From contig CAZWVU010000001.1 of NCBI GenBank assembly GCA_964637575.1, positions 53,009 through 117,008 of the forward strand: a DNA stretch of 64,000 nt. The letters run 5' to 3'. This DNA is from an uncultured Candidatus Saccharibacteria bacterium (GTDB taxonomy: Bacteria; Patescibacteriota; Minisyncoccia; UBA6257; WO2-44-18). Below, piece after piece: positions 31,114 to 50,827 of this stretch. The stretch's first letter is position 1. Every line of letters begins with the position of its first letter. Below the pieces are notes generated by a model. It did not search any database, was not told the DNA's origin, and was given only the letters and a program-made list of their open reading frames with translations. The translations under genes and the position numbers were made by a program.

Positions 31114-32325
31114 TTAATAAGGCAGGGGAAATTTTTTGGCCAGCGCCGTAACTTCCTTCCGGACAAATTCCTTTTTCACAAGCGCCCGCTGGATCAATCC
31201 GGCGATTGTTTTCATCTGCGGTTCTTTCATCCCGCGGGTGGTGACCGCCGGAACGCCGATGCGGATGCCGGAAGGCTTGAAAGGGCTCTGATCGCCCGGG
31301 ATGGTGTTGCGGTTCGCAGTGATCCCGTTTTTCTCGAGCAGCTGCTCCGCGGTCATACCGTCCAGATTGACGCTCCGCATGTCGGCCAGCATTAAATGAT
31401 TGTCGGTTCCGCCGGTGACAAGCGTGAAGCCCAGGCGGACCAGTTCGGCCGCGAGCACCTTGGCATTTTTCAAAATCTGCTGCTGATATTTTTTAAAACC
31501 CGGCAGAGCCGCTTCAAAAAACATCAGCGCTTTGGCCGCGGTGAGATTATTATGCGGGCCTCCCTGCATGCCCGGAAATACCGCTTTATCGATCGCCTCC
31601 GCCAGGTTTATTTTTGAGAAGATTGCGGCGCCGCGCGGTCCGCGCAGTGTTTTATGAGTCGTCATCATCACCGCGTCGCTGTGGAGAAACGGGGATACGT
31701 GCACGCCGGCCAGCACCAGCCCGGCAATATGGGAGATGTCGGCGACATGATACGCACCGACGGAGTGGGCGATTTCGCCGAAGCGGCGGAAATTAATTTC
31801 CCGGGGATAGGCAGTGAGGCCGGAAACGATCACTTTTGGCCTGTGTTCTTTCGCAAGTTTTTCGATTTCGCCGTAATCCAGAAGTCCCGTCCGCTCATCA
31901 ACGCCGTAATGAATTACCTTATACGCCTTACCGGAAAAATTCACTTTGTGTCCGTGGGTGAGATGGCCGCCGGAAGAAAGCTTCAAGCCCATCAGCGTAT
32001 CGCCGAAATTCATGAGGGCCGCGTAGATGGCAATATTCGCCGGCGATCCGGAATAGGGCTGGACGTTCACCGCCCACTCCTCCGGTTTCAGATCGAACGC
32101 TTCCAGGCCGCGTTTCTTCGCGAGATTTTCAATTTGATCATAGTATTCATTGCCCGGGTAATATCGCCTGCCCGGATACCCCTCGGAATACTTATTGGTA
32201 AGCGGCGAGCCGATCACGGAAAGCATGTCTTGGGAAACATAATTCTCCGACGCGATCAGGTCGATGGTTTCTTTTTGCCGCTTGGTCTCCTCTTGTATTA
32301 AACGCCCGAGAATTTTATCTTTCAT
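31114..32325 (-). CDS. glyA: Serine hydroxymethyltransferase
   Basis: 403 aa; DLIASENYVSQDMLSVIGSPLTNKYSEGYPGRRYY, PLP-Lys region HKTLRGPRG. Confidence 0.85.
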   Translation of the reverse strand: MKDKILGRLIQEETKRQKETIDLIASENYVSQDMLSVIGSPLTNKYSEGYPGRRYYPGNEYYDQIENLAKKRGLEAFDLKPEEWAVNVQPYSGSPANIAIYAALMNFGDTLMGLKLSSGGHLTHGHKVNFSGKAYKVIHYGVDERTGLLDYGEIEKLAKEHRPKVIVSGLTAYPREINFRRFGEIAHSVGAYHVADISHIAGLVLAGVHVSPFLHSDAVMMTTHKTLRGPRGAAIFSKINLAEAIDKAVFPGMQGGPHNNLTAAKALMFFEAALPGFKKYQQQILKNAKVLAAELVRLGFTLVTGGTDNHLMLADMRSVNLDGMTAEQLLEKNGITANRNTIPGDQSPFKPSGIRIGVPAVTTRGMKEPQMKTIAGLIQRALVKKEFVRKEVTALAKKFPLPY

Positions 32326-32362: not shown

Positions 32363-33106
32363 ATGCGCTATTTTACCACTGAAGAATTAAAGGAGAACAA
32401 CCGTGACGAGGTGGCGCGCGTCCTCAAGGATTGCGTGGGAAAAAACGTCCGCTACAACCTCGCGTTTGAACTTATTGAAGACTACGCGAAACGCGCCCCG
32501 GCGCCGCAGGAGGTAACAATTCTGGACCTCGGAGTGGCGAGCGGGTATTTTTTAAAACAACTGCACAAGAAGGGGTACCGGAATCTTTTTGCCCATGACA
32601 TCGATGAATACCTGCCGCCGGAAACAAAAAAATTATTCCGGGAGTTCAAAACCGCGGAACTGAACACGGAGAAGCTTCCCTGGCCGGATAATTCCTTTGA
32701 TTTTGTCACCGCCTGGTGCGTCCTGCCGCACCTGGAAAATCCCTTCCATGCCGCCCGCGAGGCGCACCGCGTATTAAAACCAGGCGGCATCTTTCTTTTC
32801 AGCGCGCCCCATCTGACCTCCCGGGGCAGTATCGATTTTTTTCTGAAATACGGATATTTCGCAGGATACCGGGAAACCAACAATCACATCGCGATGCTGC
32901 CGCCCAGCATTGTTAAAAAAACGCTGTCCAAATATTTTACCGTGCTCGACCTGCAATATCTGGTGGTGCCGAAAATTTTCGCCGGCCTCAAGGGCCGCAT
33001 CCGGGAAGCATTATATGGATTTTCAAAACGTTTTCCCAGGTTTCGAACGTACCTGGGAAAACGCTGGGGTTATAACCTAATTTATATCCTGCAAAAACCG
33101 CAGTAA
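32363..33106 (+). CDS. SAM-dependent methyltransferase (paralog group A)
   Basis: 247 aa; FKTAELNTEKLPWPDNSFDFVTAWCVLPHLENPFHAAREAHRVLKPGG. Confidence 0.6.
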   Translation: MRYFTTEELKENNRDEVARVLKDCVGKNVRYNLAFELIEDYAKRAPAPQEVTILDLGVASGYFLKQLHKKGYRNLFAHDIDEYLPPETKKLFREFKTAELNTEKLPWPDNSFDFVTAWCVLPHLENPFHAAREAHRVLKPGGIFLFSAPHLTSRGSIDFFLKYGYFAGYRETNNHIAMLPPSIVKKTLSKYFTVLDLQYLVVPKIFAGLKGRIREALYGFSKRFPRFRTYLGKRWGYNLIYILQKPQ

Positions 33107-34444
33107 TTCGGAAGCAAGCCGCTGGCTGGAGTTTCCGTCAGTTTTATAACAAATCTGCTCAAGCGTTTTCTCCCGCTGCTCATTGTTCCGCGTCGGATCA
33201 TTGGCGTATGCCCCAATCGATTCAATCAGATCGTCTTCATTGGACGCCACGTGGCAACCGCCCCCGCGCGTCAGTGGCTGAAGATGTTCGAGGTCTAAAA
33301 ATTTCCGGATCCCGCCAAAACCGATCAGGATCACCGGTTTTTTAAAAAGCAGGGCGTCCACCGCGATGGTCGACGGGCCCGGCAACACCACGTCGCTGTG
33401 GGCAAGCGAGTTGATAAGATGCCGGTCGGCTTCGGAGTTCAGCTCTCCTTTTCCAAAAAGTTTTGCCGGCCGGTCAAACGCCATATTGGCAGGCGGGACA
33501 AAATTCCCCAGATCAACTTCGCCGATCAGCGGAAAACGTACCAGCACCTGAAATATTCGCGGGTCCAGCCGGCGCAGTAGTTCCAAAATCCGGCGGTTGT
33601 ATTCCTCATGACGCCCGGAAAACTGCTTATGGAGAAACATATCCGCGACGGCAACAAAAAGAATGGTTTTTTTGCCTGGATCAAGGCCGGCGCTCCGGAA
33701 AAATTCCGCGCGGGAATCGGTCCGGGTATTCAGGTATTTGTCATAGTGGGGAATTCCCACCACCACGACATCCCGCGCTGGAATGTGGTTATAGACCCGG
33801 CACTCTTCTTTGATCACCTCATTCCACACCGCGATCCGATCCGGCACCTCCCGGATAACTCCGCGGGTGGTCAGGTTGTCCCAGGAACGGACCATTCCGA
33901 TCACCGGAATCCCGTTCTTTTTCGCCTCCCGAATCAGATCAATGTCGCTGTCGCCGCTGCTCCGGTCGGTAATATCCGTCGAAAATACCAGCGCCGGTTT
34001 ATAGCGTTCGAAATAAATCCGGAATCTGTCGGACGGCAGGGTGTTCCGGTCCAGCCAGCGCACGAACAGGATTGCCGGCTTCCAACCCGCGCAGACGCCG
34101 GTCACGACCCGGCTGCCATAGTAACTGAATGCGGAAAGAACATTGCGGAAATTAGTGCGCATTTTCAAAAACATCCGGCTGGTATTGGTATTGATCAGAA
34201 GCCGCGACAGGGCGCCGATCAGAATTTTCCGCCGGCTCAACGGCGCCACCGGTACGCCTTCAATAATCACTTTTGCCGAGGAAAAATTCTTTTCCAGATA
34301 TTCCCTTTCCTTTTCCGGAGCGAGGATCACGACGCGCACGTTATCCGGACGCGTGACCATGTTCAGGAAATCCGTGTCCAGAAGATTGCGGACAACAAAG
34401 TTGGTAAAGGCCGTTATGAAAACGGTTTTCTGTTCCTGATTCAT
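33077..34444 (-). CDS. Unassigned GT-B-like paralog family member (455 aa, SWDNLT motif)
   Basis: GIPVIGMVRSWDNLTTRGVI; start overlaps (ATGA-type, 4 nt) the stop of the upstream CMP-sugar synthetase gene. Confidence 0.5.
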   Translation of the reverse strand: MNQEQKTVFITAFTNFVVRNLLDTDFLNMVTRPDNVRVVILAPEKEREYLEKNFSSAKVIIEGVPVAPLSRRKILIGALSRLLINTNTSRMFLKMRTNFRNVLSAFSYYGSRVVTGVCAGWKPAILFVRWLDRNTLPSDRFRIYFERYKPALVFSTDITDRSSGDSDIDLIREAKKNGIPVIGMVRSWDNLTTRGVIREVPDRIAVWNEVIKEECRVYNHIPARDVVVVGIPHYDKYLNTRTDSRAEFFRSAGLDPGKKTILFVAVADMFLHKQFSGRHEEYNRRILELLRRLDPRIFQVLVRFPLIGEVDLGNFVPPANMAFDRPAKLFGKGELNSEADRHLINSLAHSDVVLPGPSTIAVDALLFKKPVILIGFGGIRKFLDLEHLQPLTRGGGCHVASNEDDLIESIGAYANDPTRNNEQREKTLEQICYKTDGNSSQRLASELLRFLQDIN

Positions 34445-37728: not shown

Positions 37729-39123
37729 CTACTTGAGACGCGGCATGATTGTTTTCACGCTGAACCAAAATCTCTTAAGAATATTTATCAAAAATTCTTT
37801 ATCGTATTCATTGAATACAAATAAACTTCTGATTTTTATCCTGAATTGTTCGTATTTCCTGACTAGCCGGGAATACAGGAACCAGCTCCGCACGATGCAG
37901 CCAAAAATGTAGTCGAACGCGATGCCGGGCAGCTGAAAGAGCGGCATAAACATTACCGCCGAAACCGGGTCGATCAGAAAATCGAGAATCACTCGCGCAC
38001 TGAGCGCTTTGTATTCCCGCAAATTGGTCAGGATCGCGCGCGTTACTTTCCAGGTGGCGTATACGGGCATGGCGAGCACCAGTATCCTGAATAGAAATAT
38101 CGCCGGAGCGTAATTCGGGAAAAGAAAAGTAATGATTACCGGCACGAAAATAAATCCGCCGATGGCAAACAAGACTCCCAGCCAGAACATGTATTTCATT
38201 GAGCGCTTGAATAAGAACGCCAGTTCCTCCAGGTGGCCGATCCGTACAAAGAAAAGCTGGGCGATCCCGTCAATCGGCACGAGGTTCTGCAAAGTTGCCA
38301 CCAGATTTACCGCCAGACTGTAAAACGCGACCGCTTCGGTATTGATAAACAGCTTGATGAACCAGGGCGTGGTATTGGATGAAACATTCACCAGGGCGTA
38401 ATTCAAAAACATCCATTTCCCGTGTGTTTTCACAAAATCAACCATCATAATCCGATTATAAGCCCTGATCCTTCCCAGTGTTTTCAAATAGGGGATAAGG
38501 GAAAGCACAAGCACCAGGATGAACACTTCAATCGCCATGCCCATCATATGCGCGATCGCGACATGCAAAATATCCAGCGTGGAAAAACGCACAAAAAACA
38601 AAATGAAGATCAGCTTGGCGAATTCGCGGATCGCAGGAGCTGCCCAGTAGGAAAACCGGACGATGGATTTTAAAAAAATACTGGCCAGGGATTCCAGCCC
38701 GGACAGGAAAAAGTAAGGGCTGATGATTTTGATCAGCAATCCAATGTCCTTGCCGTACCAGTGGGCGATGATATTCGCGCCGAAAAACACCGCGAGACTG
38801 ATCAGCGCGGTAAGCGGCAGGCGCCATGCGGCCATTTCCCAGAATATTCTTTTGGCCTTTTCCGGCTCTTTGTTATTGAAATGATGCCGCATCTCCGTGG
38901 CGATCGGACCGTCCAGATTATTAATGTCCAAACTGTCCAAAAGAGAAACGAATGCCAGTACGAGCTGGAAGGTGCCGAACTGGAAAATGCTTAACAGGCG
39001 AATCGTAAAAAAGGAACTCACATATCCGATCAGGGATGCCGACATGTCGAAAAACCGGCGCATGCCTTCGCCTTTAAAAAAATAGTATCCCAGCGGTTTT
39101 TTTCTCAATGCCTCGTCGTTCAT
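37729..39123 (-). CDS. Wzx-like oligosaccharide/polysaccharide flippase (MOP superfamily)
   Basis: 464 aa, about 12-14 predicted TM helices, polysaccharide_biosynth-type layout. Confidence 0.55.
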   Translation of the reverse strand: MNDEALRKKPLGYYFFKGEGMRRFFDMSASLIGYVSSFFTIRLLSIFQFGTFQLVLAFVSLLDSLDINNLDGPIATEMRHHFNNKEPEKAKRIFWEMAAWRLPLTALISLAVFFGANIIAHWYGKDIGLLIKIISPYFFLSGLESLASIFLKSIVRFSYWAAPAIREFAKLIFILFFVRFSTLDILHVAIAHMMGMAIEVFILVLVLSLIPYLKTLGRIRAYNRIMMVDFVKTHGKWMFLNYALVNVSSNTTPWFIKLFINTEAVAFYSLAVNLVATLQNLVPIDGIAQLFFVRIGHLEELAFLFKRSMKYMFWLGVLFAIGGFIFVPVIITFLFPNYAPAIFLFRILVLAMPVYATWKVTRAILTNLREYKALSARVILDFLIDPVSAVMFMPLFQLPGIAFDYIFGCIVRSWFLYSRLVRKYEQFRIKIRSLFVFNEYDKEFLINILKRFWFSVKTIMPRLK

Positions 39124-41270
39124 TGTAAAAGCGCGGCGGACAGCTTTTCCATTAACCCGGACAGGCTGTGTTTTTCCTGAATAAGGATACGCATGGTGCG
39201 GCCGATTGCCTCCCGCTCGGAAGGAGCCAGGGCAACAAATTCCCGGATTTTTGCCGCCAGATCATCATAGTCCTTTTCACTGAACATCAGCAATGAACGC
39301 AGCTCCGGAGGAAATATGTCCCGGAACGCCCCGTTACTCACGAGTACGGGAATTCCGCAGGCCATTGCCTCAAGGGTGCTCTTATCAAAACTGCCGGTGT
39401 CCGTGAGATTGATGAAGAGATCGTGCTGATGATACATACCTGGCGTATCCTGGTTTGGAACCGAGTCGCGGAGCTCTATTCTGCCGCGCGCGTCCGACTC
39501 TGCTGCAAGACTCCTGATCCGCGCATAATAATCCGCCTCCACCGGCTTGCCCGCCGTGGGGCTGCCGACAATAGTCAAAGATGCGTTGCCGATTGAAGGT
39601 AGCGCGGCCGCGAATGCCTGGAGCAACCCGTCGACATGTTTTACCGGAGCGATTCTTCCTAAGAATAAAATTTTAAAATGGCTGCCGTCCGCCTGCCGTT
39701 TGTCGTCCGGCCGGAAGCGGTCCGTGTCAATTCCCTGCTGCAATACTCTAAGCTTGCGGCTTGCAAACGGATAGGCCTGCCGCACCGATGTGACAATCGC
39801 TTCGGGGAAAAGCGCGGCGACCCGGAGCTTCCAGGTGCCAAGGTAATGGGCATACCACAACACCAGCCGCTTATGCCAAAGCCTCCAAAGCCATCCGGCG
39901 AGAATGACGTATTCGGGATTCATGTGGACAAAGACCGTGTCATAGTTTTTCCGAAGTCCCCATACATACCGGTAAAAATTCCAAAGGTATTTGATCCGGC
40001 TTTTCCCGCGCTCTTTGCCAAGCGAGTATATGGAAACATTTTCTGGAAGATCGGTTTTCCCCTGATACAGACAGATCACTGAAATGTGGTCGAAATGCGC
40101 CGCCAGTCCCCTGATCCACTGGTGGTAGACGCCAAGCACATCGTCGCGCAGATCGACTTTCTGGGTAATCATCAAAAGTTTTTTGGCGCGCGGAAACCGC
40201 AGGGACGCGGCATAGTCCCGGAGATATTCCTCCCGGCATTCCGGCAACGCTGCCAGAAATTCCCGCTGACGGTGTAATGTTGCCTGCCGCACCCCGGGAT
40301 TGCTGATCAGGCGGTCGACGGCTTCGATAAGCGCCATGACACTGCCGACGGGAATCACCTCGCCGAGGGCGACGCCGACATCGGTCATGATCACCGGCAC
40401 ATTGGCGGCGGCGGCTTCCACGGCGACACGTCCATATCCTTCATAATTTGAGGTCAATAAAAAAATATCGGCGGACTGGTAATAAGCGGCAAGATTGTTT
40501 GTCTGCGGCTCAAGCAGGACGTGCTGATCCAGTTTTAAATGGGCGATGCGGGCTTTAAGATTGTCGCGTTCCGGACCGTCGCCGACGATCACCAGAACGG
40601 CATGGGGATGTTTTTGAATAATGACCGGCATCATTTCAACCGCCATCCCAATATTTTTTTCTCTGGTCAGACGCGAAGCCATAAGCATCACGGGGTGCTT
40701 TCCGGGAAACATTTTTGCGTTCGGTGCCGCAGTCGCCGCGCGATCGGTAAAAATCGGCAAAACAGTAATCCGCTTCTCATCGACAAGATGGCGCCCGATC
40801 AAAGAAGTCCGTATCCGATCGGACACTACGCGCACGCCGTCCGCCTTCGGAAGAATCCGCCGGGCAATCGCGAGCCGGATTTTATTTTTCCAGGATTCCG
40901 CCACAAAAAACGGACTGAAAAGATCCGTGTGCACCTGTAACTGCAAGGGGTAGCCGAACCTGCGCGAAAGCCGGTATGCCGCGAGGCCATTTTCAAAAGG
41001 ATCCTGGGCGGTAATCGTCCATTCCCCGCCGGAAACAAACAGCTGCCTGGCAATGACGTCCGCGCGCCAGAGGGCGCCCACGCCCGTCCACGCAATGGCC
41101 GGATGCGCAGTAACTTTTTCAGAAACGACAACACTGGCTGCAGAATGATCTCGCGTGGGAATAATGATGTGGAGCTCATCAAAAAACGCCCCATATTCCG
41201 CCATTCTTCGCCGCGCCTCCGAATGTTCTTTCAAAATGGCGGCGTCAGTTGAGATCATTAATACTTTCAT
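39120..41270 (-). CDS. Tandem two-domain GT4 glycosyltransferase
   Basis: 716 aa; two GT-B units each with an E..E/Gly-rich acceptor motif (VAVEAAAANVPVIMT; LEAMACGIPVLVS). Confidence 0.6.
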   Translation of the reverse strand: MKVLMISTDAAILKEHSEARRRMAEYGAFFDELHIIIPTRDHSAASVVVSEKVTAHPAIAWTGVGALWRADVIARQLFVSGGEWTITAQDPFENGLAAYRLSRRFGYPLQLQVHTDLFSPFFVAESWKNKIRLAIARRILPKADGVRVVSDRIRTSLIGRHLVDEKRITVLPIFTDRAATAAPNAKMFPGKHPVMLMASRLTREKNIGMAVEMMPVIIQKHPHAVLVIVGDGPERDNLKARIAHLKLDQHVLLEPQTNNLAAYYQSADIFLLTSNYEGYGRVAVEAAAANVPVIMTDVGVALGEVIPVGSVMALIEAVDRLISNPGVRQATLHRQREFLAALPECREEYLRDYAASLRFPRAKKLLMITQKVDLRDDVLGVYHQWIRGLAAHFDHISVICLYQGKTDLPENVSIYSLGKERGKSRIKYLWNFYRYVWGLRKNYDTVFVHMNPEYVILAGWLWRLWHKRLVLWYAHYLGTWKLRVAALFPEAIVTSVRQAYPFASRKLRVLQQGIDTDRFRPDDKRQADGSHFKILFLGRIAPVKHVDGLLQAFAAALPSIGNASLTIVGSPTAGKPVEADYYARIRSLAAESDARGRIELRDSVPNQDTPGMYHQHDLFINLTDTGSFDKSTLEAMACGIPVLVSNGAFRDIFPPELRSLLMFSEKDYDDLAAKIREFVALAPSEREAIGRTMRILIQEKHSLSGLMEKLSAALLQ

Positions 41271-41899
41271 TTTTCTAAAATGAAAAAGTAATGATAATGA
41301 TTGAATGCCGGCCGGACTTCTTTCAGGATATTGAATTGTTTCTTAATTTCGGCACGCACCCGGGAAAGCCGGTAATTTCGCGCGTCAATTTCCCAGTAAT
41401 GTTGGCCGGAAACCTTGATCCCGCCGAATTTCAGGGGAATTCTTACAAAGAAATCCAGGAATAATCTCTTGAATAAGGTGCGGACTCCCGGAAATTTAAA
41501 CGCAAATTCGAATCCGGTCGATTTATACGGGAGCGACAGAACCACATGCCGCCTGGCCACGCGCTTCAGTTGCGCGAGCGCTTTCGGGAAATCCTCGAAC
41601 GGCAGATGCTCGAGCACCTCAAACGCCGTTACCACGTCAAAGCTGTTGTCGGCAAGCGGCAGCGAACGGACGTCAGCCACCACGTCCGGATTCAGACTCG
41701 CGTCAAAGTCACAGGCAGTAACCTGATAGCCGAATTTCTTCATGTAATCAGAAAAGGTGCCGTTACCCTTGCCGATTTCCAAAATAGTTTTCGGGTCCAG
41801 GGAGCCGACGAGGTCGGTTTGATAGAAATAGGAAATAAAACGATTGAGATCGTCGTACTTTTTGCGGAAATAATGCTGCGTATCAACCTGTGGCTTCAT
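41267..41899 (-). CDS. Class I SAM-dependent methyltransferase
   Basis: 210 aa; ILEIGKGNGTF motif I, LPLADNSFDVVTAFEVLEHLP. Confidence 0.6.
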   Translation of the reverse strand: MKPQVDTQHYFRKKYDDLNRFISYFYQTDLVGSLDPKTILEIGKGNGTFSDYMKKFGYQVTACDFDASLNPDVVADVRSLPLADNSFDVVTAFEVLEHLPFEDFPKALAQLKRVARRHVVLSLPYKSTGFEFAFKFPGVRTLFKRLFLDFFVRIPLKFGGIKVSGQHYWEIDARNYRLSRVRAEIKKQFNILKEVRPAFNHYHYFFILEK

Positions 41900-44129
41900 T
41901 GATTAAGTTTACTAAATTATCGACGGTTCGTTGTATGGAGAATTCTTGAGCCTTAGAATGAGCCGCGTGTCCGATATCGCGCCGGAACCCGAAATCGTCT
42001 CTGATTTTCTTTATGGCGGACAATATCTGATCTTTATTATTCGGCTCAACCAATATTCCTTCCTTGCCGTCTTCAATTAGTTCCGGGATGCTTCCTATTT
42101 TTGTGGCAATTACAGGAACATGGGCATTCATCGCTTCAACAATTGCAAATGAGAAACTTTCAAAACTCGTATTGAGGATAAAAATGCCCGCATTATGTAA
42201 ATAGTTGCTCAGCATCTTCTCTCTGCCAATCTCGCCCACCAGCGTAACTCTGTTCTCCAGCTTATATTCTCTAATAATCTCCTCTAATCTTGTTCGATCG
42301 GGACCTTCGCCGACAATAAAAAGTTTGGACTCAACCATTTCCGGATCGGCCATAAGTTTTATTAGGTAATCAAAGCCTTTCCAGGGAACCAGCCGACCGA
42401 CTGACAGTAATACATTATTATTGCGCACCGCCATCACTCCCCCTCTCAATTCAATGCCGTTATATATCGTCTTCACCTTCTCTGGCTGGGCGACCCATCC
42501 TCCCACCAATTTCTGAAAATACCTGCTTGGCGTGATCACTAAGTCCGCCCGGCCCACTACCAGGCGCTGAATCCGCCGGAGCAATTCGGTTTTCCATCCA
42601 TAGCGTCGGTGCTGGAACTCATCAATCGAATCCGATACGCCAAAACGCTGGGTCGCCTGCTCCCAGGCATAGTCGCCGGCGACGCGGATAAAAAACTTCC
42701 TACCGCGCAATTTCGCCGCCAGCATCGCGGGCAATCCCACGCTCACCGGGTCCTGTGCGTAGACAGCGTCAAAATTGTTCAGCATGCTCCAGCACCGCCG
42801 GAAATACGCGAAATGCCTGATGATGGTCGGTTTTTTCCTGAACGGCGTAAATGCCAGAACGCCCACAGACAATCCGCGTTTCGGCAGCTCTTTTTCCAGC
42901 AGGACGGTATAGGTGGCGGGGCCGCCGATATCCGGCGGATAGATGCCGGTGGCAATCAAGATGCGCGGCGCCCGATCCGGGGCATGCATCATCGAAAAGA
43001 TATTTTTCATTCTGGAGGCGATACCGTCCCAAGAATAGTTTCCGCGGGCCAGCGTGCGGCCATTGGCGGCGATCCGGCGCGCCGCGTCCGGATTATCCAA
43101 AAGATAGGTAATTTTTTCAGCGAGATCTTTGGGATTATCTATTTCACAAAAAAGACCGGTCTCTCCGTCTTTAAGAAAATCGGGGATACCGCCCGCCCGG
43201 GTGCCGATAACCGGCAGCCCCGCCGCCATCGCTTCCAGAAAAGAATTTCCCAATCCTTCCGACCGCGACGGCCTGACAAACACATCAGCGCCTGACAAAT
43301 AATCGGGGATTCGCTCCGGCTCAACATGGCCGAGAAATTCCATATTTTCCGCGACCCCAAGCTCCGCTGCCAGATTTTTCAACGATTGTTCATCAGGCCC
43401 GCTCCCGACGACTTGCATTGAGAATCGCGCGCCGCGAGTCTTTTTCAATTCCGCTGCCGCGCGGATTACAATATCAATTCCGTTTTTGTGAACCAATCGC
43501 GACGTGGTAATGATTACCGGTTTTTTGCCGGCATTTTTTGGTTTTTGATTTTCAGTTTTAAATTTACCGAAGTCCACTCCGTTGGGAACCATATCAATGG
43601 GGCATGACGCTCCGTGACGCCGGGCAAAGTCGCCAAGATAGTTGCTGATCACCTGGATGCGATCCGCTTTTGTAAAAATCAACTTCCACAAAGGATAGAA
43701 AATTCCAACCCGGTGAAGGATGTGCTCCTCCGAATCACCCTCCTGAAGGGTAAGCAGCATCGGCACATCAGGGTGGCGCAATTTAAAAAGAAGCGCTGCA
43801 ATTCCGGCATAGGAAGCCATCATCGCCCACGTGGCTGCGAAAGGCCGCTGTCGGTGTTCACGCTCCGCCGCGCGCCATGCCCGGATCACGTAGACGATCT
43901 TTTCCAAAAAACGGCCGTAGTAGTTTCCTCCGCTCCGCCCCTTTCCCACCCGGATTACTTCGGCGTTGCCGGACATTTCCCGCTCCGGCCATGTGGCATC
44001 AAAACGGGAGGTAAAGAGCACAAATTGGGCATCGGGAATCCGTCGGGAAATTTCTTCAATCGCAATTTCCGCTCCACCGACAAACGGCCGGTACGCGAGC
44101 GTAAACACGCCGATGACTTCTTTTGACAT
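41883..44129 (-). CDS. Tandem two-domain GT4 glycosyltransferase
   Basis: Start chosen at MSKEVIGVFTLAYRPFVGGAEI (44129; the ORF track extends to 44267). Two EX7E-type regions: EGLGNSFLEAMAAGLPVIGT and ESFSFAIVEAMNAHVPVIAT. Confidence 0.6.
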   Translation of the reverse strand: MSKEVIGVFTLAYRPFVGGAEIAIEEISRRIPDAQFVLFTSRFDATWPEREMSGNAEVIRVGKGRSGGNYYGRFLEKIVYVIRAWRAAEREHRQRPFAATWAMMASYAGIAALLFKLRHPDVPMLLTLQEGDSEEHILHRVGIFYPLWKLIFTKADRIQVISNYLGDFARRHGASCPIDMVPNGVDFGKFKTENQKPKNAGKKPVIITTSRLVHKNGIDIVIRAAAELKKTRGARFSMQVVGSGPDEQSLKNLAAELGVAENMEFLGHVEPERIPDYLSGADVFVRPSRSEGLGNSFLEAMAAGLPVIGTRAGGIPDFLKDGETGLFCEIDNPKDLAEKITYLLDNPDAARRIAANGRTLARGNYSWDGIASRMKNIFSMMHAPDRAPRILIATGIYPPDIGGPATYTVLLEKELPKRGLSVGVLAFTPFRKKPTIIRHFAYFRRCWSMLNNFDAVYAQDPVSVGLPAMLAAKLRGRKFFIRVAGDYAWEQATQRFGVSDSIDEFQHRRYGWKTELLRRIQRLVVGRADLVITPSRYFQKLVGGWVAQPEKVKTIYNGIELRGGVMAVRNNNVLLSVGRLVPWKGFDYLIKLMADPEMVESKLFIVGEGPDRTRLEEIIREYKLENRVTLVGEIGREKMLSNYLHNAGIFILNTSFESFSFAIVEAMNAHVPVIATKIGSIPELIEDGKEGILVEPNNKDQILSAIKKIRDDFGFRRDIGHAAHSKAQEFSIQRTVDNLVNLINEATG

Positions 44130-44161
44130 TGCCGTTATCTTATCGTACTGTGTACTCAATG

Positions 44162-45295
44162 GCAACCCGGAAAATTGTCTATCTGGTAACCAAAGATGAC
44201 GTGGGCGGCGCGCAAAAGTATGTTCAGGATCTCTGTGAAAATCTCGACAAAAGCCGGTTTGAAGCAAAAATAGTCACCGGCGGGAAAAAGGGGATCCGTT
44301 TTCTTTCCAACGCCTTTCTTCCCTACGCGCTTTTTATGAATGACTGGCTGGCGCTCACCGAGCTGGTGTTGTTTTTCCGCAAAGAAAAACCGGATATCGT
44401 TCATCTGAACAGCTCCAAAGCCGGCGTGGTGGGCGCCATCGCAGCGAAAATTGCCGGGGTTCCCCATGTGGTGTTTACCGCTCACGGCTGGGTATTCAAT
44501 CCCGACAGCCAGCTCGGTGCAGCCCGCAGAACATTCTATATAGCGCTCCATAAGCTGGCGGCGAAATTCCAGGACCGGATCATCAACGTGTCTGAATATG
44601 ACCGCCGTCTCGCGCTTACCCACCGGATCGCGCCTGCCCACAAATTGGCGACTGTATATAACGGCATCGACCGGGAAAAAGCAAAATTCCTGGATAAAAA
44701 AACGGCGCGAAGCGCCTTATCCCAAATGACCGGCCGCCGCATTCCCCTTACCGGCACCTGGATCGGATCCATCGGCCGGCTTGTAAAAGAAAAAAGTTAC
44801 GGTGATTTTATTGAGGCCGCCACCATGGTCAGCGACCCCTCCGCTCAATTTTTTATCATCGGAAGCGGAACGCTTAAAAAAGATCTGGAAATAAGGATCA
44901 GGGAGGCAGGGCTGGCGGAGCGGTTTTTCATCATAGAAAATGTTTCTCCGGCCGCGGCCTATATCCAGGCGTTTGACGTGTTCGCGTTGTCGTCTATCAA
45001 AGAAGGCATGCCCTACACCCTTATTGAAGCCATGGCCGCCGGACTTCCGATTGTTGTCACCCGCGTGGGCGGCATGCCGGAAATTATTGACGCGCTTGAT
45101 GAGGCGAAACGCGGCCTGGCTATGCCGCCCCGGTCTCCGGAAGAACTGGCCCGGGCAATTAATTATTTTCTGGAAAACAAGAAGGAGGCGGTCCGCTACG
45201 GCAGGAACGCACAACAGTATCAAAAGTCCCGGTTGGCGCTTTCCTCGATGGTCGCCCAGACGGAGGCGGCGTACCAGCTTACTGAAGCTTCTTAA
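44162..45295 (+). CDS. GT4 glycosyltransferase
   Basis: Start chosen at MATRKIVYLVTKDDVGGAQKYV (44162; the ORF track starts at 44123). KEGMPYTLIEAMAAGLPIVVTRVGGMPE. Confidence 0.65.
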   Translation, partial: ATRKIVYLVTKDDVGGAQKYVQDLCENLDKSRFEAKIVTGGKKGIRFLSNAFLPYALFMNDWLALTELVLFFRKEKPDIVHLNSSKAGVVGAIAAKIAGVPHVVFTAHGWVFNPDSQLGAARRTFYIALHKLAAKFQDRIINVSEYDRRLALTHRIAPAHKLATVYNGIDREKAKFLDKKTARSALSQMTGRRIPLTGTWIGSIGRLVKEKSYGDFIEAATMVSDPSAQFFIIGSGTLKKDLEIRIREAGLAERFFIIENVSPAAAYIQAFDVFALSSIKEGMPYTLIEAMAAGLPIVVTRVGGMPEIIDALDEAKRGLAMPPRSPEELARAINYFLENKKEAVRYGRNAQQYQKSRLALSSMVAQTEAAYQLTEAS

Positions 45296-46049
45296 TTTCG
45301 TCCTGAATCAATGCTTGTTGAGTCCCGGTAATTTCGGGGTTTTGCAGGACAAGCTCAAAATAAGTGATCGCATCTGCCTTGTCTCCCACCGATCTGTAGT
45401 ATGAGGCGAGCTCCAGGGCTAAATTGGGGTTATTTTTTATATGATCCAACCCGGAAAGCAGTACCTTGGGAATTTCCGCAGATTTTTCAGGATAAAAATC
45501 CCGGTAAAAATCCGCCAGGCCAAGATACGTAAATTCTTCATATGAATCCAGTTGAACTGCTTTGACAAAATTCAGCTCTGCGCTCTTATTATCCCGCAGA
45601 AAACTCGCATACAAGTCTCCCAGATCGTAATAGATTGTCGGATTATTCGGCGCGAGGTGTTTCGTATATTCCAAAACATCCCGAGCTCCCGCATAATTTT
45701 CGACGGACTTTTTGATGATCGCAAGGCCAATCCAGGCATCGATATTATTTCGGTCATCCCCGATCAGTTTTAATTCCGCGGCAAAACGATCCTTTTGCTG
45801 TTGAAGATAGGCCACGGGATACTTACCGGCTACTTTTTCGGCGCCAAGATAGGAAAGTGTCTGACCCTGATATCCTGTACGGGCTGGATTCGTTGAGGGG
45901 GTTTTTGGAAAAAGATCATCGGCTTTTTCATTCGCCGGAGATGTCTGAGCAACGCTTGGAGTTTCTTTATGCAAAAAACGAACGCCCGCAAATGTTGCGG
46001 CCCCCGCGAGCAACACTGCCCCGAAAACAATAAGGATACCTCTCTTCAT
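45279..46049 (-). CDS. TPR-repeat protein with N-terminal membrane anchor/signal
   Basis: Start chosen at MKRGILIVFGAVLLAGAATFAG (46049, AGGA 6 nt upstream). The longer ORF (to 46121) would run through the terminator hairpin. TPR-like helical repeats (YYDLGDLYASF, YLGLADFYRDF). Confidence 0.5.
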   Translation of the reverse strand: MKRGILIVFGAVLLAGAATFAGVRFLHKETPSVAQTSPANEKADDLFPKTPSTNPARTGYQGQTLSYLGAEKVAGKYPVAYLQQQKDRFAAELKLIGDDRNNIDAWIGLAIIKKSVENYAGARDVLEYTKHLAPNNPTIYYDLGDLYASFLRDNKSAELNFVKAVQLDSYEEFTYLGLADFYRDFYPEKSAEIPKVLLSGLDHIKNNPNLALELASYYRSVGDKADAITYFELVLQNPEITGTQQALIQDEIKKLQ

Positions 46050-46059
46050 AATCCTCATT

Positions 46060-46100
46060 AATACCAAAAAACCAAAACCCCCGCAAGAGCGGGGGTTTTT
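46060..46100 (-). terminator. Strong intrinsic terminator after the giant surface-protein gene
   Basis: Perfect 7-bp GC stem CCCCCGC/GCGGGGG (46078-46084 / 46089-46095), loop AAGA, followed on the minus strand by UUUUGGUUUUUUGG. Confidence 0.7.
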
Positions 46101-46123
46101 GGCATCTGCAATAAATCTCAAGT

Positions 46124-49100
46124 TTATTGCAAGGTGATCGTTTCCTGCAATCCAGCATCGCTGTTGGAGAGACCAGGAACGAGGAAACCGTTGTACCAGG
46201 TGAAGTCCACAATGCTCTGGGTCGTCGAAGTCGGGTTGCCGCTCCAGATGAAGTCATTGTCATCCCAGCCATCGGCATTCGCAGCAGTGGTCGCGAAGAT
46301 GTACCGGCCGTTCACAAAGTCATCACCTTGTGCCGTCGGATCATAGCTCGCGCCAACACCGTTTCCGTTGCCGGCTGAACCTAACTGACCTGCATCGAAA
46401 GTAGCATCGCCGTCCATCTTGGTTGTGACGTTCGGAGAGCTGGAAGCACCTGTGATGTCACCGACGAGGGCGAAGTATAACGTCTGACCGGCGCTGACGC
46501 GCACCGTGTCCTTGGTAGAACCACCTGTGCTATCGGTCGGGTTGAAGTATACCGTCACCAGAGTCGGGTTAGTCGTGCTGCCACCTGGGTGCAACGCACG
46601 GCCGGATCCTCCATTGTTCACGGTCGCATTCGCGAGACCACCCTGGTTCAAGAGACCGGAGTTGTCGAAGGCGTTGCAAGCCGCGTTGCTGAAGGCCGCA
46701 TCGGAGTAGCAATACACACGGAAGTTCGTAACTTGGAAGTTGCAAGTGTGTCCCGCAACACCGCTGTTATCGCAACCCTGTGTCGTGCTCGTAGAGACTT
46801 CGAAAGCGTACTTGTACAAGCTGACGCCGTTCGTTCCCGCCGGGGCGCTTACGCTGAAGCGATAAAGCGTCTGGCCGGAAGTGTTGGCGAACTTGCCGCT
46901 CGTTGAAATCTTGGTGATCGTCGGATTGGCACGTGTGATTCTCACGCCGTTCGAGGCAGTGTTGCTGCCACCGGAAGCGATCGTGGAACCAGACGACATA
47001 CCGACACCTACCGCACCGCGGTTGCTGTTGTCAGTGCTGCTCTGGGAATCATAGTTCACAAGAACCAGATGACCAGGCTTGGCCGGCTGACCAACACCAA
47101 TCGGAGCGATATCTCCCTTGATGGTCAAGAGAATCTGGCTGTCCTTCGGAACAGTGACACCACTCAAGCTGACCGTGGCGAAATCACCGCTGAAGACCGC
47201 GCTACCAACCTGCTGGGAACCCACCCAAAGAGTAACCTGGCTGAGATCCTGCGGGGTGTTGGAAGCGTTGCCATAGGCATATGCAGCATTGCCGGAAGTG
47301 GTAGCGAGCGTGAGGCCGATGGTATCCACCCGGATGTCTTCATAGGTAGAGGTCAGAGAGAAGACCGCAAGAGTGTTGCCGGTCGTTCCCGACTGAGCCC
47401 ACCGCAAAGACGGGCTGGAGGAATCCAAAGCCAAGCTCAATGTACCAGCTGTGCGGGCAGTGATGGTGCGGCCGTTATCCGCCGTTCCACCAGGAGTAAC
47501 TGTGGTACCGGAAGTAATACCGGTCGCCACTACGTTCGTGGTGGAAGGAGTCGCAAGGCCCCAACCATATGTCTGTCCAGACAACGCCTGAGCCGTCAGG
47601 TTGCAATACAATCCCAATGTCTTCACCGTTCCTTTCGGAATGATCAAGCTTGAGTCAAACGTGAAGGCAACCGCGTCGGCACTCGCAACCGAGTTGCCCG
47701 GGTTCACGATATTGGAACCGCTGTTCAACGCAGTCGTGCCATCTTTCAATTGGCAGTTGGTCATATCGTCTGCGGTATTCGCAGTGCCGATCGCCACGCG
47801 CAATTGCATCTGGGTAAGACGAATGTCTTCGCCGGAGTTCGAGGCATCGAGTACGTAGTTCGTGAAGAGGTAGTTATTCGTACCTGCTACAACGTTCTGA
47901 GCAGCCGCAGCTGAACCCGTTCCAGGCGCAACGGTTACCGACAACGCGGCCGCTTTCACGGTCATCGTGTTCATAGTAATCGTACCGCCAGTCGGCGTAA
48001 TGGACTGGGAAGAAACCAAGCCCTTGACAGTGGTCCACTGGGAGCTCGGGGTGGTAGAAGCCGAAACCGTATCGTTATTCGCGAAATCGGTGCCCAGTTT
48101 ACCTTTCAAGGTGTAAACGTGGCGGCCAACTTTCAAAGTAACGGTATCGGTGAATTTAATGGCGTTCTTGCCGCCCGCTGCACCATCAACCGGACCGGCG
48201 ACTACATTGCCGTTCTCGTCGTACAAGCTGACATTGGTAATGTCGTTCGAATCAATCGCACGGCTACCAGTGCTCGGCTTCACGAGAGAAAGATCAAAGT
48301 TCATCGCGGCAACCGTGACATCTTCACCCTTCACATCAGCCAAGAAACCGCCCAACACCTGGTTGGAAAGGTTGATAGCAATGTTCTGGGCAGCAACCGT
48401 TACGGCTTTTTCAACAGTCAGCGTACCAGCGCCAATGGTGACTTGGAAGCCATCAAAGTTCGGCTGGGAGCTCTGAAGAGTGCCGTTATGGTTGGTGGAA
48501 GAATCACCGGAATCAGTTGCGGTCGGAGCAAGCGTATAACCGTAAGTCAAACCAACGACCTGGATATCGTTGTAGCGATAGAGGTCAAAGCTGACGGTAC
48601 GATTCGTGCCGCTCACGACATCTCCCTTGATAGAAGCTTCCTTGGAAAGACCCTTTTGAATGGTCAAAGGCGGGTTGAAGACGGCGGTATAGTACTTACC
48701 ATCAGAGCTGACGGTAGTATCATACGCGGTTCCATCAACATATACCTTTACATTCGCAAGGTCAGTCGCGCTCGCAGAGCCGGACTGATACCAGCGGAAG
48801 GACTTCAGAGAAACATCTTCATTGGAACCAGCGGTCAACTTGAGGGAAGAGAACGTGTACCCAGTGGTACCGATCTGTTCAGTCAAAGAAGTACCCGGAT
48901 CCAAAGGACCACGAGTGATCGTGACGTTTCCAATAGAAAGCGTGTCGTTTACGGTCATCACGTTTCCGGTCAGAGGGAAACTGGCACCTACATGGGCGGC
49001 TCCCGCATCGACGCCGATCAAGCTCAAGCTGACAAGCTGTCCAGCCTGGTTGGTCTGGCTCGCCGGGGAATCACCGGCCAATGTAATGATCCGGGACTGG

Positions 49101-49885
49101 CCTGCCTTAACTACGAACGGATTCGAAAGTTTCAGGGTGTGGTCAGAACCGAAGGTCTTGGAATCGCCGAGGCGGATTCCATTCTCATCCAAAGCTACAA
49201 CGCCGCTGAATGCAGCATCGGCGCCCTGGCCAGTTCTCTGAACGGTCAAGCTATTTACCGTAACATCGCCATCAGCAGAGGCCGAGAACACCAATTTGGT
49301 GAACGGGCGGCTCGCAAATGACTTGCCGAAAAGACCAGCAGCTGGCTGATCAGCGGCCAAATTAACAGAAAGTCCGCTTCCAGACGGTACTGGAGTCGGG
49401 CTTGGGGTCGGGACCGGAGCAGGAGTAGTGCCAGCGACAAGCACGGCATACTTCGCTCGTGATTTCGGACCAAAATAACCGACAGCCGGGGAAAGGCCAT
49501 TGGCAGCTTGCCACTTGGCTACCGCAGCAGCGGTCCTTGAACCGAAATACATAGATTCATTGCCTCTTGATCCCGCGCCGCTGGCAGATACCATCGAGTT
49601 GCCACCATCATTCAAGTACTGCTGCAGGCACATAACGTCATTGCCAGTTACACCCACGGTGAGGTCGCGGGTAAACGTGCAATGAACGGCAGAGCCGGAG
49701 CCACCTGTCTGATTAGCAAGCTGTGATTGTAACGCAGCGATTTGGGATAACAAGGCATTGATCTGGGTTTGCAAATCCGTAACGGATTGCGCGTTGGCAA
49801 CCGGTACGAACATCGCAAAGCTAGAAAGCCATACAGCGGTAGTTGCGGTAAGCAATACCGATGTAATTTTATTTGTTATGTTCAT
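46124..49885 (-). CDS. Giant secreted cell-surface protein with peptidoglycan-binding domain and Thr/Ser/Gly/Asn-rich beta-repeat region (S-layer-like, probable glycoprotein)
   Basis: 1253 aa; signal peptide ending VANA-QS, short coiled coil, PG_binding_1-like segment (CLQQYLNDGG...FGSRTAAAVAKWQAANGLSPAVGYFGPKSRAKY), Pro/Thr linker TTPAPVPTPSPTPVP, then repeated beta-domain-like units. Confidence 0.6.
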   Translation of the reverse strand: MNITNKITSVLLTATTAVWLSSFAMFVPVANAQSVTDLQTQINALLSQIAALQSQLANQTGGSGSAVHCTFTRDLTVGVTGNDVMCLQQYLNDGGNSMVSASGAGSRGNESMYFGSRTAAAVAKWQAANGLSPAVGYFGPKSRAKYAVLVAGTTPAPVPTPSPTPVPSGSGLSVNLAADQPAAGLFGKSFASRPFTKLVFSASADGDVTVNSLTVQRTGQGADAAFSGVVALDENGIRLGDSKTFGSDHTLKLSNPFVVKAGQSRIITLAGDSPASQTNQAGQLVSLSLIGVDAGAAHVGASFPLTGNVMTVNDTLSIGNVTITRGPLDPGTSLTEQIGTTGYTFSSLKLTAGSNEDVSLKSFRWYQSGSASATDLANVKVYVDGTAYDTTVSSDGKYYTAVFNPPLTIQKGLSKEASIKGDVVSGTNRTVSFDLYRYNDIQVVGLTYGYTLAPTATDSGDSSTNHNGTLQSSQPNFDGFQVTIGAGTLTVEKAVTVAAQNIAINLSNQVLGGFLADVKGEDVTVAAMNFDLSLVKPSTGSRAIDSNDITNVSLYDENGNVVAGPVDGAAGGKNAIKFTDTVTLKVGRHVYTLKGKLGTDFANNDTVSASTTPSSQWTTVKGLVSSQSITPTGGTITMNTMTVKAAALSVTVAPGTGSAAAAQNVVAGTNNYLFTNYVLDASNSGEDIRLTQMQLRVAIGTANTADDMTNCQLKDGTTALNSGSNIVNPGNSVASADAVAFTFDSSLIIPKGTVKTLGLYCNLTAQALSGQTYGWGLATPSTTNVVATGITSGTTVTPGGTADNGRTITARTAGTLSLALDSSSPSLRWAQSGTTGNTLAVFSLTSTYEDIRVDTIGLTLATTSGNAAYAYGNASNTPQDLSQVTLWVGSQQVGSAVFSGDFATVSLSGVTVPKDSQILLTIKGDIAPIGVGQPAKPGHLVLVNYDSQSSTDNSNRGAVGVGMSSGSTIASGGSNTASNGVRITRANPTITKISTSGKFANTSGQTLYRFSVSAPAGTNGVSLYKYAFEVSTSTTQGCDNSGVAGHTCNFQVTNFRVYCYSDAAFSNAACNAFDNSGLLNQGGLANATVNNGGSGRALHPGGSTTNPTLVTVYFNPTDSTGGSTKDTVRVSAGQTLYFALVGDITGASSSPNVTTKMDGDATFDAGQLGSAGNGNGVGASYDPTAQGDDFVNGRYIFATTAANADGWDDNDFIWSGNPTSTTQSIVDFTWYNGFLVPGLSNSDAGLQETITLQ

Positions 49886-50044
49886 TGATTAATTTTTGTA
49901 ATTACTGAATTCTTTTTTAATTTCTCGTCCAAAATCGTTCTCCATCTTTCTGCCACGTAAAGTGCTGCAGAAATCGACCTTGATAGAAAACCTATCTCAA
50001 TAGCTTATTCTGGTAATGACTCTGCTCGGATATTTTTTTATTTG

Positions 50045-50080
50045 TGAGGAATAAAAAAAGTCTCCCAAATGTGGGAGGCT
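50045..50080 (-). terminator. Intrinsic terminator after the regulator gene, upstream of the surface-protein promoter region
   Basis: Stem TCTCCCA/TGGGAGG (50061-50067 / 50072-50078), loop AATG, U-run on the minus strand from the plus A-run 50052-50059. Confidence 0.5.
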
Positions 50081-50203
50081 GCAAAGCAATGTCGCAATCG
50101 ACAAGAGATCAACATTGCTAATGACTAAGCCTCACACAAAGCCACTACATAGAGTATAACGACCGTATGGGCTATTTATTACGGCAATTATATGCGGCAA
50201 ACA

Positions 50204-50827
50204 CTATCCCTTAAGGGCGTAGTAGCTTCCAGGTCCCCCATTGCCGATTCGTTCAATAAGGCCCTGTAAGCAGAGCTTTTGAAGATCGTAGCGCATGGTT
50301 CTTTCGCTCACTTCAGGAAATGCGGCAATAATGTCTTTAAGCTGGGCTTGCCGGTTTTCGGATTGCCGTATTTTATCTAAAATTGCCGATTGCCGAATTG
50401 TGGATGCCATTCCATTTCCGTTTCCATCTATTGCTACCATTGGCGCAGAATTGCCGTTTTCTTTTTTTGCAAGATCGTCACTTATGATAGTAGGGACCTT
50501 AGAAAAAATCGGCGCAACATCGGAAGTGTTTTGAGATTCAGATTCTATTCCGGTGATTTGTTCAAGTGACTCCTTTACTGACCGCAACTCGCCAATTATT
50601 ATCTTGGCATTCACTGGTTCGATTTCATACATTAACTTTCCAAGACTGATCAAAGACTCCAAAACAACGATTGATTTTAAAGCGTCCTCGAAATTTTGCA
50701 TGCCTACATTTTCCAAAAGCTGAAAGGCATATTTTTCGAGACGTTGCCGAAGTTCCACCCGCCGAATGTAGGGGGCAATGCGGGTCAGTGCATAGCTAAT
50801 TTCCTGCGTTTTCTGATTCACAAACAT
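50204..50827 (-). CDS. Putative DNA-binding regulator with C-terminal DeoR-like winged HTH
   Basis: 207 aa; C-terminus AAFPEVSERTMRYDLQKLCLQGLIERIGNGGPGSYY is HTH-like. N-terminal domain unassigned. Confidence 0.35.
   Translation of the reverse strand: MFVNQKTQEISYALTRIAPYIRRVELRQRLEKYAFQLLENVGMQNFEDALKSIVVLESLISLGKLMYEIEPVNAKIIIGELRSVKESLEQITGIESESQNTSDVAPIFSKVPTIISDDLAKKENGNSAPMVAIDGNGNGMASTIRQSAILDKIRQSENRQAQLKDIIAAFPEVSERTMRYDLQKLCLQGLIERIGNGGPGSYYALKG

Follow-up and report, generated by a model that had tools for sequence, protein, structure and literature searches.

A putative peptidoglycan-anchored S-layer protein gene in a Patescibacterial genome, its conserved neighbours and its upstream RNA elements

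We analysed a stretch of 64,000 nt of contig CAZWVU010000001.1 (assembly GCA_964637575.1, positions 53,009 to 117,008), referred to below as the window, and the large gene found at 46124..49885 on its minus strand. This gene is an open reading frame with an ATG start and a product of 1253 amino acids (aa), as given in an initial annotation of the window, and it probably encodes the surface layer (S-layer) protein of an uncultured Parcubacteria/Paceibacteria bacterium (Patescibacteria, or Candidate Phyla Radiation, CPR); we put this reading at roughly 75%. An S-layer role has already been predicted for the same kind of protein in a 2024 preprint (bioRxiv 10.1101/2024.05.28.596244), and the identification is thus anticipated. 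The initial annotation had proposed an S-layer or surface glycoprotein of a CPR-type envelope. The family distribution, the predicted structure and the literature agree with a peptidoglycan-anchored protein of the S-layer type; the glycoprotein part does not have this support. In the mechanism that we propose, the protein would leave the cell by the Sec route, and its N-terminal domain would bind it non-covalently to the thin peptidoglycan; a coiled coil may bundle neighbouring subunits if it does mediate oligomerisation. Six beta-sandwich domains would self-assemble into a hexagonal lattice, and in a cell that lacks an outer membrane this lattice would be the outermost layer of the envelope. 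The gene would be transcribed as a highly expressed monocistronic unit, and the membrane-anchored tetratricopeptide repeat (TPR) protein encoded downstream would act as a dedicated assembly or anchoring partner.

The supplement of the preprint describes a putative Patescibacterial S-layer protein with six immunoglobulin-like (Ig-like) domains, which came from the scan of a Nealsonbacteria genome. The examples given there (Table S2 and section S3) are 1131-1274 aa long and include Nealsonbacteria A0A1G2EN61, Kaiserbacteria A0A0G1WWP5 and Parcubacteria GMX59286.1. According to the same source, p6 'hexagonal spiral pyramid' lattices are predicted for the protein, many homologues of it exist across Patescibacterial classes, and homologues rank among the five most expressed genes with a signal peptide in two Paceibacteria species studied by Kuroda et al. 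The top-expressed genes of those species include proteins with a peptidoglycan-binding domain and similar predicted structures (PMC10936435). Also, ultra-small cells from groundwater have a periodic surface layer and no outer membrane by cryogenic transmission electron microscopy (PMC7906910). The window protein shares with the preprint protein the phylum, the size range, the signal peptide, the six serial beta-sandwiches and the distinct C-terminal domain; it also has a peptidoglycan-binding domain, as do, according to Kuroda et al. (PMC10936435), the highly expressed proteins counted as homologues in the preprint. Since taxon, size, anchor domain, and domain number and kind all match, we place the gene in this kind of S-layer gene, which is predicted computationally and has partial experimental support.

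Concerning the N-terminal region, aa 1-32 (49790..49885, minus strand, as for all features of the protein) resemble a signal peptide, with the sequence MNITNKITSVLLTATTAVWLSSFAMFVPVANA followed by QS. A basic n-region, a hydrophobic core and an A-x-A site (A-N-A before Q; predicted cleavage after VANA) are recognised by inspection, and the same n-h-c pattern is kept in the family consensus. The next segment (aa 33-60, 49706..49789, LQTQINALLSQIAALQSQL) has a heptad-like, coiled-coil character; its Q, I, L and L columns are conserved in family alignments, and the N-terminal part gives weak coiled-coil matches in Pfam (FlxA and TPR-like families). A PG_binding_1 domain (PF01471) is located at aa 80-133 (49487..49648) with an E-value of 1.7e-6 and a score of 28.5 bits (the curated cut-off is 23), and provides the means of envelope anchoring that is expected of S-layer proteins; PF01471 is also the precomputed annotation of most homologues. 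It is followed by a Pro/Thr linker at aa 150-170 (49376..49438, GTTPAPVPTPSPTPVPSGSG). The PG_binding_1-like domain and the linker named in the initial annotation are therefore present, and the N-terminus looks like the Sec signal named there. PG_binding_1 is the only family above cut-off in a Pfam scan of the 1253 aa, the next being DUF5643 (E 0.13), and no SLH domain is matched at E-values up to 1. The C-terminus (...SNSDAGLQETITLQ) contains neither an LPXTG motif nor a hydrophobic tail when checked for a sortase anchor.

The computed mass of the mature protein is about 124.6 kDa and its pI is 4.9. The 1253-aa sequence contains 12.2% T, 11.2% G, 10.9% S and 6.8% N, and only 0.6% Cys, 1% Met and 1% Glu. 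Thr and Ser together make up 23.1%, compared with 9.7% in 33 other window proteins, and the body of about 1080 aa is indeed rich in Thr, Ser, Gly and Asn, as first described. The acidic pI, the mass, the low Cys and Met content and the richness in Thr, Ser, Gly and Ala are typical features of S-layer proteins.

An AlphaFold2 model was obtained for aa 166-1253 (1088 aa, mean pLDDT 86.9) and is entirely beta. Based on this model and on hhalign, aa 171-955 (47021..49375) comprise five tandem, mutually homologous beta-sandwich domains of the Ig-like type, and aa 956-1253 (46127..47020) form a distinct C-terminal beta-sandwich domain with four Cys and the conserved motifs FIWS..NSTT and DW.NGYLVPGL. 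For the test of homology the family alignment was split at the domain boundaries of the model and the pieces were compared profile to profile. Domains 1-5, each of about 150-170 aa, are homologous in eight of the ten pairs (probability 82-98.5%, E down to 2e-15); the weak pairs are d1-d3 (20%) and d2-d3 (12%). The C-terminal 300 aa or so differ from all five. Together, the five homologous domains and the distinct one give the six Ig-like domains in series that characterise the predicted Patescibacterial S-layer family. The body had been described as beta-repeat sequence. This holds for the all-beta model and for the homology of the five domains at the profile level, but self-BLASTP of the 1253-aa protein finds no sequence repeats. 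Also, none of the Ig-like families in Pfam (Big_1/2/3, DUF11, Cadherin-like, FN3) matches the protein.

NCBIfam and PDB sequence searches of the protein body gave zero matches. A Foldseek search of the 1088-aa model against the PDB returned only generic tandem Ig-like arrays, with template modelling (TM) values below 0.2 (PrgB, MG domains of alpha-2-macroglobulin, integrin legs and mastigonemes), and the fold matches of the domains are restricted to Ig-like, cohesin-like and pilin-like types. The presence of an enzymatic or toxin domain, named at the outset as the finding that would speak against a surface protein, is not borne out, because no catalytic fold is seen and Foldseek gives tandem Ig-like arrays only. 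We therefore regard an extracellular enzyme or toxin as highly improbable: there is no catalytic family or fold in the Pfam, NCBIfam or PDB sequence searches or in the models, both models are pure beta-sandwich, and the toxin fold matches are weak and fall on a non-catalytic sandwich domain only.

The homologues are about 1150-1300 aa long and show 40-66% identity over 98-100% of the length. There are more than 1400 clusters of full-length homologues, and a scan of one genome per GTDB species gave 399 relatives. All named sources are Patescibacteria, except one entry labelled candidate division KSB1; the lineages named are Parcubacteria, Harrison-, Sung-, Kaiser-, Giovannoni-, Lipton-, Yanofsky-, Lloyd- and Taylorbacteria. 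The Kaiserbacteria members are 1165-1180 aa long. Some of the most conserved motifs of the family are found in the C-terminal domain. In public records, members carry the labels 'DNA topoisomerase IV subunit A', 'SpoIID/LytB protein' and 'Beta-galactosidase', which neither the sequence nor the models support. An adhesin with variable repeats was also considered and is ruled out by the constant length, the 40-66% identity from end to end and the lack of self-BLASTP repeats.

The main rival of the S-layer reading is a host-attachment adhesin, in which a long Ig-like stalk is anchored in the wall and its distal C-terminal domain binds the host surface, with no lattice formed. CPR bacteria are episymbionts (PMC7906910), the highly expressed Paceibacteria proteins with a peptidoglycan-binding domain are read as attachment factors by Kuroda et al. 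(PMC10936435), and the fold matches include Ig-like domains of adhesins and pilins (PrgB, CppA and Fap1). Repeat number, copy number and sequence are commonly variable among adhesins, whereas this family keeps its length, domain number and 40-66% identity across many candidate phylum-level lineages, and it is mostly single-copy, in conserved synteny beside core genes such as ClpB. Although the hosts differ (archaea and various bacteria), motifs in the C-terminal domain are among the most conserved. Because of the constant length, the mostly single-copy synteny and a distal domain conserved across lineages with different hosts, the adhesin reading fits poorly, and we consider it improbable.

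Certain points nevertheless weigh against an S-layer protein. Kuroda et al. take the same kind of protein as a host-attachment factor (PMC10936435). A second, more divergent paralogue lies close to the first in the related loci L032, L042, L048, L054, L061 and L064. Finally, the likeness to the preprint accessions is one of architecture, size, anchor domain and taxon; cluster look-ups of family members of 1173 and 1185 aa returned accessions other than those of the preprint, and a second homologue search, started from a Kaiserbacteria member, did not arrive at them either.

The S-layer reading can also be compared with characterised systems. Proteins of the SbsC/SgsE type of Geobacillus stearothermophilus consist of a wall-anchoring module followed by Ig-like domains as 'beads on a string' (PMC13635256). 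An N-terminal wall anchor and a string of Ig-like domains are thus common to these proteins and the window protein, and a likeness can also be drawn in the monocistronic gene. The anchor is different, as the window protein has PG_binding_1 and not the polymer-binding module of the SbsC/SgsE type or an SLH domain, and a PDB search detects no sequence similarity between the two. For Haloferax volcanii csg, the preprint (10.1101/2024.05.28.596244) describes the same basic architecture, with six Ig-like assembly domains arranged in a left-handed spiral and forming hexagonal pyramids. Unlike the window protein, csg is archaeal, is lipid-anchored via a C-terminal PGF-CTERM and is proven to be both N- and O-glycosylated.

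The gene directly downstream of the S-layer gene (45279..46058, minus strand) encodes 259 aa, with TPR repeats (Pfam TPR_8 and TPR_14) and a single transmembrane helix at the N-terminus. In 58 of the 72 related loci with enough flanking DNA, the 1.5 kb that follow the S-layer gene contain a TPR gene of the same orientation. The N-terminus before the sole transmembrane helix is basic, and therefore the TPR part should face outward. This membrane-anchored protein is a candidate assembly or anchoring partner. The TPR gene is a more widely conserved neighbour of the S-layer gene than the glycosyltransferases are: GT4 glycosyltransferase genes lie within 6 kb downstream in 32 of 56 loci, being present in every counted relative with at least 46% identity and mostly absent at 40-44% identity. 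Based on this difference in adjacency, the core conserved pair is the S-layer gene and the TPR gene, and the neighbourhood of GT4 genes and a Wzx-like flippase is clade-restricted.

The wider gene order recurs in two parts. The upstream part consists of ClpB, a membrane protein of about 240 aa, a protein of about 210 aa with a DeoR-like helix-turn-helix (HTH), a long intergenic region and the S-layer gene; the downstream part consists of the S-layer gene, the TPR gene, an opposite-strand GT4, a double GT4 (about 750 aa), more GT4 and the Wzx-like gene. The entire order from ClpB to the Wzx-like gene recurs in loci whose large protein is 46-61% identical to that of the window. The DeoR-like gene of the window (50204..50827, minus strand) encodes 207 aa with the HTH at the C-terminus (PF08220, E 2.4e-5) and is a candidate regulator; it is conserved directly upstream in the closer clade. 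No tRNAs were found.

The glycan genes had been described as directly abutting the large gene. The island is present, but the TPR gene and an opposite-strand GT4 intervene. Its proximal, partly conserved module, as assigned with Pfam, occupies 37729..45295 on both strands and contains a GT4 (44123-45295, plus strand), a double GT4 (41883-44132, minus strand), a methyltransferase, a second double GT4 and a Wzx-like flippase; the same order is found in L001, L003, L005 and other related loci. The sugar genes of the island as a whole comprise GT4, GT2, the Wzx-like flippase, a UDP-GlcNAc 2-epimerase and several epimerases and dehydratases (Pfam). It also encodes two cytidylyltransferases of the CMP-sugar type (CTP_transf_3), three TagF-like glycerophosphotransferases, a phosphoenolpyruvate (PEP) mutase, a polysaccharide deacetylase, seven methyltransferases, a B12-radical-SAM enzyme and a formyltransferase beside serine hydroxymethyltransferase (SHMT) and FolD. 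A transaldolase and AMP-binding enzymes are encoded there as well. The PEP mutase, an enzyme of phosphonate synthesis, and the three TagF-like genes (3352-4356, 7591-8946, 21940-23253 and 33077-34444, minus strand) suggest that this CPR bacterium makes a teichoic-acid-like polymer, which may carry phosphonate. The grouping of SHMT, FolD and formyltransferase (23253-24065, 30282-31064 and 31114-32325, minus strand) may serve to provide N10-formyl-tetrahydrofolate locally for an N-formylated sugar. In a related locus (L005:16856-18766), FolD is fused to a GT4 glycosyltransferase in a protein of 636 aa, with SHMT adjoining.

Two readings of the island have to be weighed, and both are compatible with an S-layer protein. 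The first adds to the S-layer reading that of a strict glycoprotein, in which a lipid-linked glycan made by the island is flipped by the Wzx-like protein and moved to Thr, Ser or Tyr residues; this is what the initial annotation meant by a probable glycosylation target. The 23% of Thr and Ser, the Pro/Thr linker and the 73 positions that are kept as Ser or Thr in at least 80% of homologues are consistent with it, and so is the GT4 and Wzx-like neighbourhood, which adjoins the gene in every locus of at least 46% identity with at least 6 kb of downstream sequence. In Geobacillus SgsE the glycan cluster adjoins the structural gene, and slg clusters beside S-layer genes are known in both Geobacillus and Paenibacillus. 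Against this, the 44 neighbouring window genes scanned with Pfam contain no O-oligosaccharyltransferase (Wzy_C, WsaB or PglL type), PMT_2 or STT3, and no initiating phosphoglycosyltransferase (Bac_transf or MraY-like). The WsaB-like transferase and WsaP-like initiating enzyme of an slg cluster of the Geobacillus SgsE type are thus both missing from these genes. Most relatives at 40-44% identity have no GT4 genes next to the large gene, and the three TagF-like genes, the PEP mutase and the cytidylyltransferases are typical of teichoic-acid-like wall polymers.

The window has a single candidate for an extracytoplasmic transferase or polymerase, a polytopic membrane protein of 612 aa (19207-21045, minus strand), which lies inside the island, has no Pfam, NCBIfam or PDB sequence match and is not conserved near the S-layer gene. 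Its early loop LDDGGDAY resembles the acidic motif of GT-C glycosyltransferases; DDGGDAY is all that the GT-C idea is based on. N-glycosylation was rejected, as no STT3/PglB was found and only one sequon is conserved (N313-D-T). This sequon (aa 313-315, 48947-48939, minus strand) is kept in 64 of 64 aligned homologues, and the other eleven N-x-S/T sequons of aa 166-1253 are not conserved; since no STT3/PglB is found, the conserved one is probably structural.

In the second reading, the product of the island is a secondary cell-wall or teichoic-acid-like polymer that co-anchors or underlies the S-layer instead of decorating it, and the adjacency reflects the co-assembly of the envelope. The three TagF-like genes, the two CTP_transf_3, the UDP-GlcNAc 2-epimerase, the Wzx-like flippase, the polysaccharide deacetylase and the PEP mutase all fit, and clusters for secondary cell-wall polymers are known beside S-layer genes in Bacillus. 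On the other hand, the anchor is PG_binding_1 and not a polymer-binding module of the SLH or CWB2 type, and an LCP-family ligase was not found in the window with Pfam scans. The content of the island would fit such a polymer at least as well as a protein glycan, and for this reason glycosylation of the protein, plausible as it is, stays a hypothesis that the genes found do not support. We regard the wall polymer as a real possibility that falls somewhat short of likely, and the strict glycoprotein as possible, with the odds against it.

The gene is flanked by intrinsic terminators on both sides, as first reported. Directly after the stop codon, at 46064..46099 (minus strand), a hairpin (46099..46074) with an 11-bp GC stem is followed by a T-run; a strong hairpin with a T-run is found within 160 nt past the stop codon in 69 of 72 related loci. 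On the upstream side there is a terminator hairpin at 50077..50062 (minus strand) with a 6-bp stem and T7. The region contains 14 terminator-like sites, compared with 7.2 +/- 2.7 in shuffles. The upstream T-run (50059..50053) ends about 165 nt before the ATG at 49885, and the GC content over 49886-50050 is 33%, compared with 53% for the window, in accordance with the AT-rich leader of about 160 nt that had been noted. A canonical Shine-Dalgarno sequence is absent, as was also noted, but this is not special to the gene: since only 13 of the 49 window genes have a Shine-Dalgarno core, its lack is a habit of the genome. The terminator past the stop codon and the long structured 5' region are features of the kind seen with strong expression, and would be consistent with it here.

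The upstream terminator had been taken to insulate the gene. The data do not bear this out: the terminator closes a conserved hairpin-terminator RNA unit, which has a -10-like box to itself and sits between the DeoR-like gene and the S-layer gene, and it is not simply the end of the DeoR-like gene. The unit (50050..50148, minus strand) is found in 26 distinct loci in addition to the window. In the window it starts with a 5' hairpin (50123-50143), whose invariant loop, GUGAGG, is at 50130-50135; a variable hairpin comes next, and then the terminator (50062-50077) with T7. The -10-like box (CGTTATACT in the window) precedes the GUGAGG hairpin by roughly 5-25 nt. Unit lengths range over 78-184 nt, and the distance from the end of the unit to the ATG is 140-280 nt except in L031 (414 nt); further examples are L013:9212-9316, L007:9251-9369 and L036:9173-9308. 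The 7-mer GTGAGGC, which corresponds to the loop and the closing base of the hairpin, is located about 220-560 nt upstream of the ATG in the 26 loci and the window. It occurs 109 times in 1.65 Mb of related loci: 35 occurrences lie 150-700 nt upstream of the gene on its strand, 27 of them with a good stem, compared with two good stems among the other 74. The stem has 87.4% of cells paired vs 73.7% in shuffles (none of 500 shuffles is as high) and 21-55% in slid controls, and five of its seven pairs show double-sided changes, that is, covariation. The DeoR-like gene co-occurs with this hairpin. No Rfam family was found for the whole window at gathering thresholds or for the 401-nt upstream region at E-values up to 10 other than by chance; the best match of the latter, Phe_leader (E 0.9), was rejected as a chance terminator-like similarity.

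Two further elements are found between the terminator and the gene. A CCTCAC box (50044..50049, minus strand), the complement of the GUGAGG loop, lies in the loop of a hairpin formed by a T-run and an A-run. It is present after the terminator in 17 of the 26 loci, in most of these mostly or wholly within a predicted hairpin loop, and L024 and L025 carry CCTCGC, for which G-U pairing to the loop is still possible. GUGAGG and CCTCAC may pair as kissing loops, or the two may be inverted binding sites for a protein. The second element is a structured leader (49932..49997, minus strand) with an invariant unpaired GGUCGA at 49974-49979; RNAalifold predicts 24 pairs for ten close loci, ten of them with compensatory changes. 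As a covariance model of this element finds only its ten training loci and three weak matches, the structure is clade-restricted. The bare GGTCGA box precedes the gene in 45 of 75 loci, against an expectation of 0.046 per locus, and in some loci it is a palindrome (GGTCGACC).

The hairpin-terminator unit may be a small RNA, with a separate promoter for the gene after it, or part of one long attenuating and stabilising leader. S-layer genes of the Lactobacillus slpA type, which are very highly expressed, have a long stabilising untranslated leader with a 5'-proximal hairpin. Unlike slpA leaders, the 5' region of the window gene has an internal intrinsic terminator and two complementary loops (GUGAGG and CCUCAC). 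It is tempting, though doubtful, to see the region of about 320 nt from the DeoR-like gene to the S-layer gene as a previously undescribed cis-regulatory RNA system of Parcubacteria. Its parts would be, in order, the promoter-proximal GUGAGG hairpin, the internal intrinsic terminator, the CCUCAC-loop hairpin and the GGUCGA element, and, on the same tentative footing, it would control the read-through and/or the stability of the S-layer mRNA, possibly together with the DeoR-like protein. Alternatively, the unit may be a stand-alone small RNA that targets the leader.

One further observation concerns a Parcubacteria contig among the related loci (L004:1730-3550), in which a NifU/IscU-like gene is interrupted, in an intein-like manner, by a domain of the LAGLIDADG type (606 aa).

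The accessible parts of the preprint seem not to mention the TPR partner, the glycan-gene neighbourhood or the upstream RNA elements. Compared with it, the almost obligatory TPR partner, the clade-restricted GT4/Wzx neighbourhood and the structured 5' region with a covarying hairpin are useful but modest increments, and follow-up would best turn to the TPR partner and to the conserved RNA structures upstream. A large part of bacterial diversity belongs to CPR/Patescibacteria, which meet their hosts with an envelope that has a periodic surface layer and no outer membrane. A gene family tied to the surface layer gives a handle for cryo-electron tomography, proteomics, labelling with antibodies or in the style of fluorescence in situ hybridisation, and studies of phage receptors. 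If the proposed RNA system is real, these minimal cells would use attenuation or a kissing loop to control their most abundant envelope protein.

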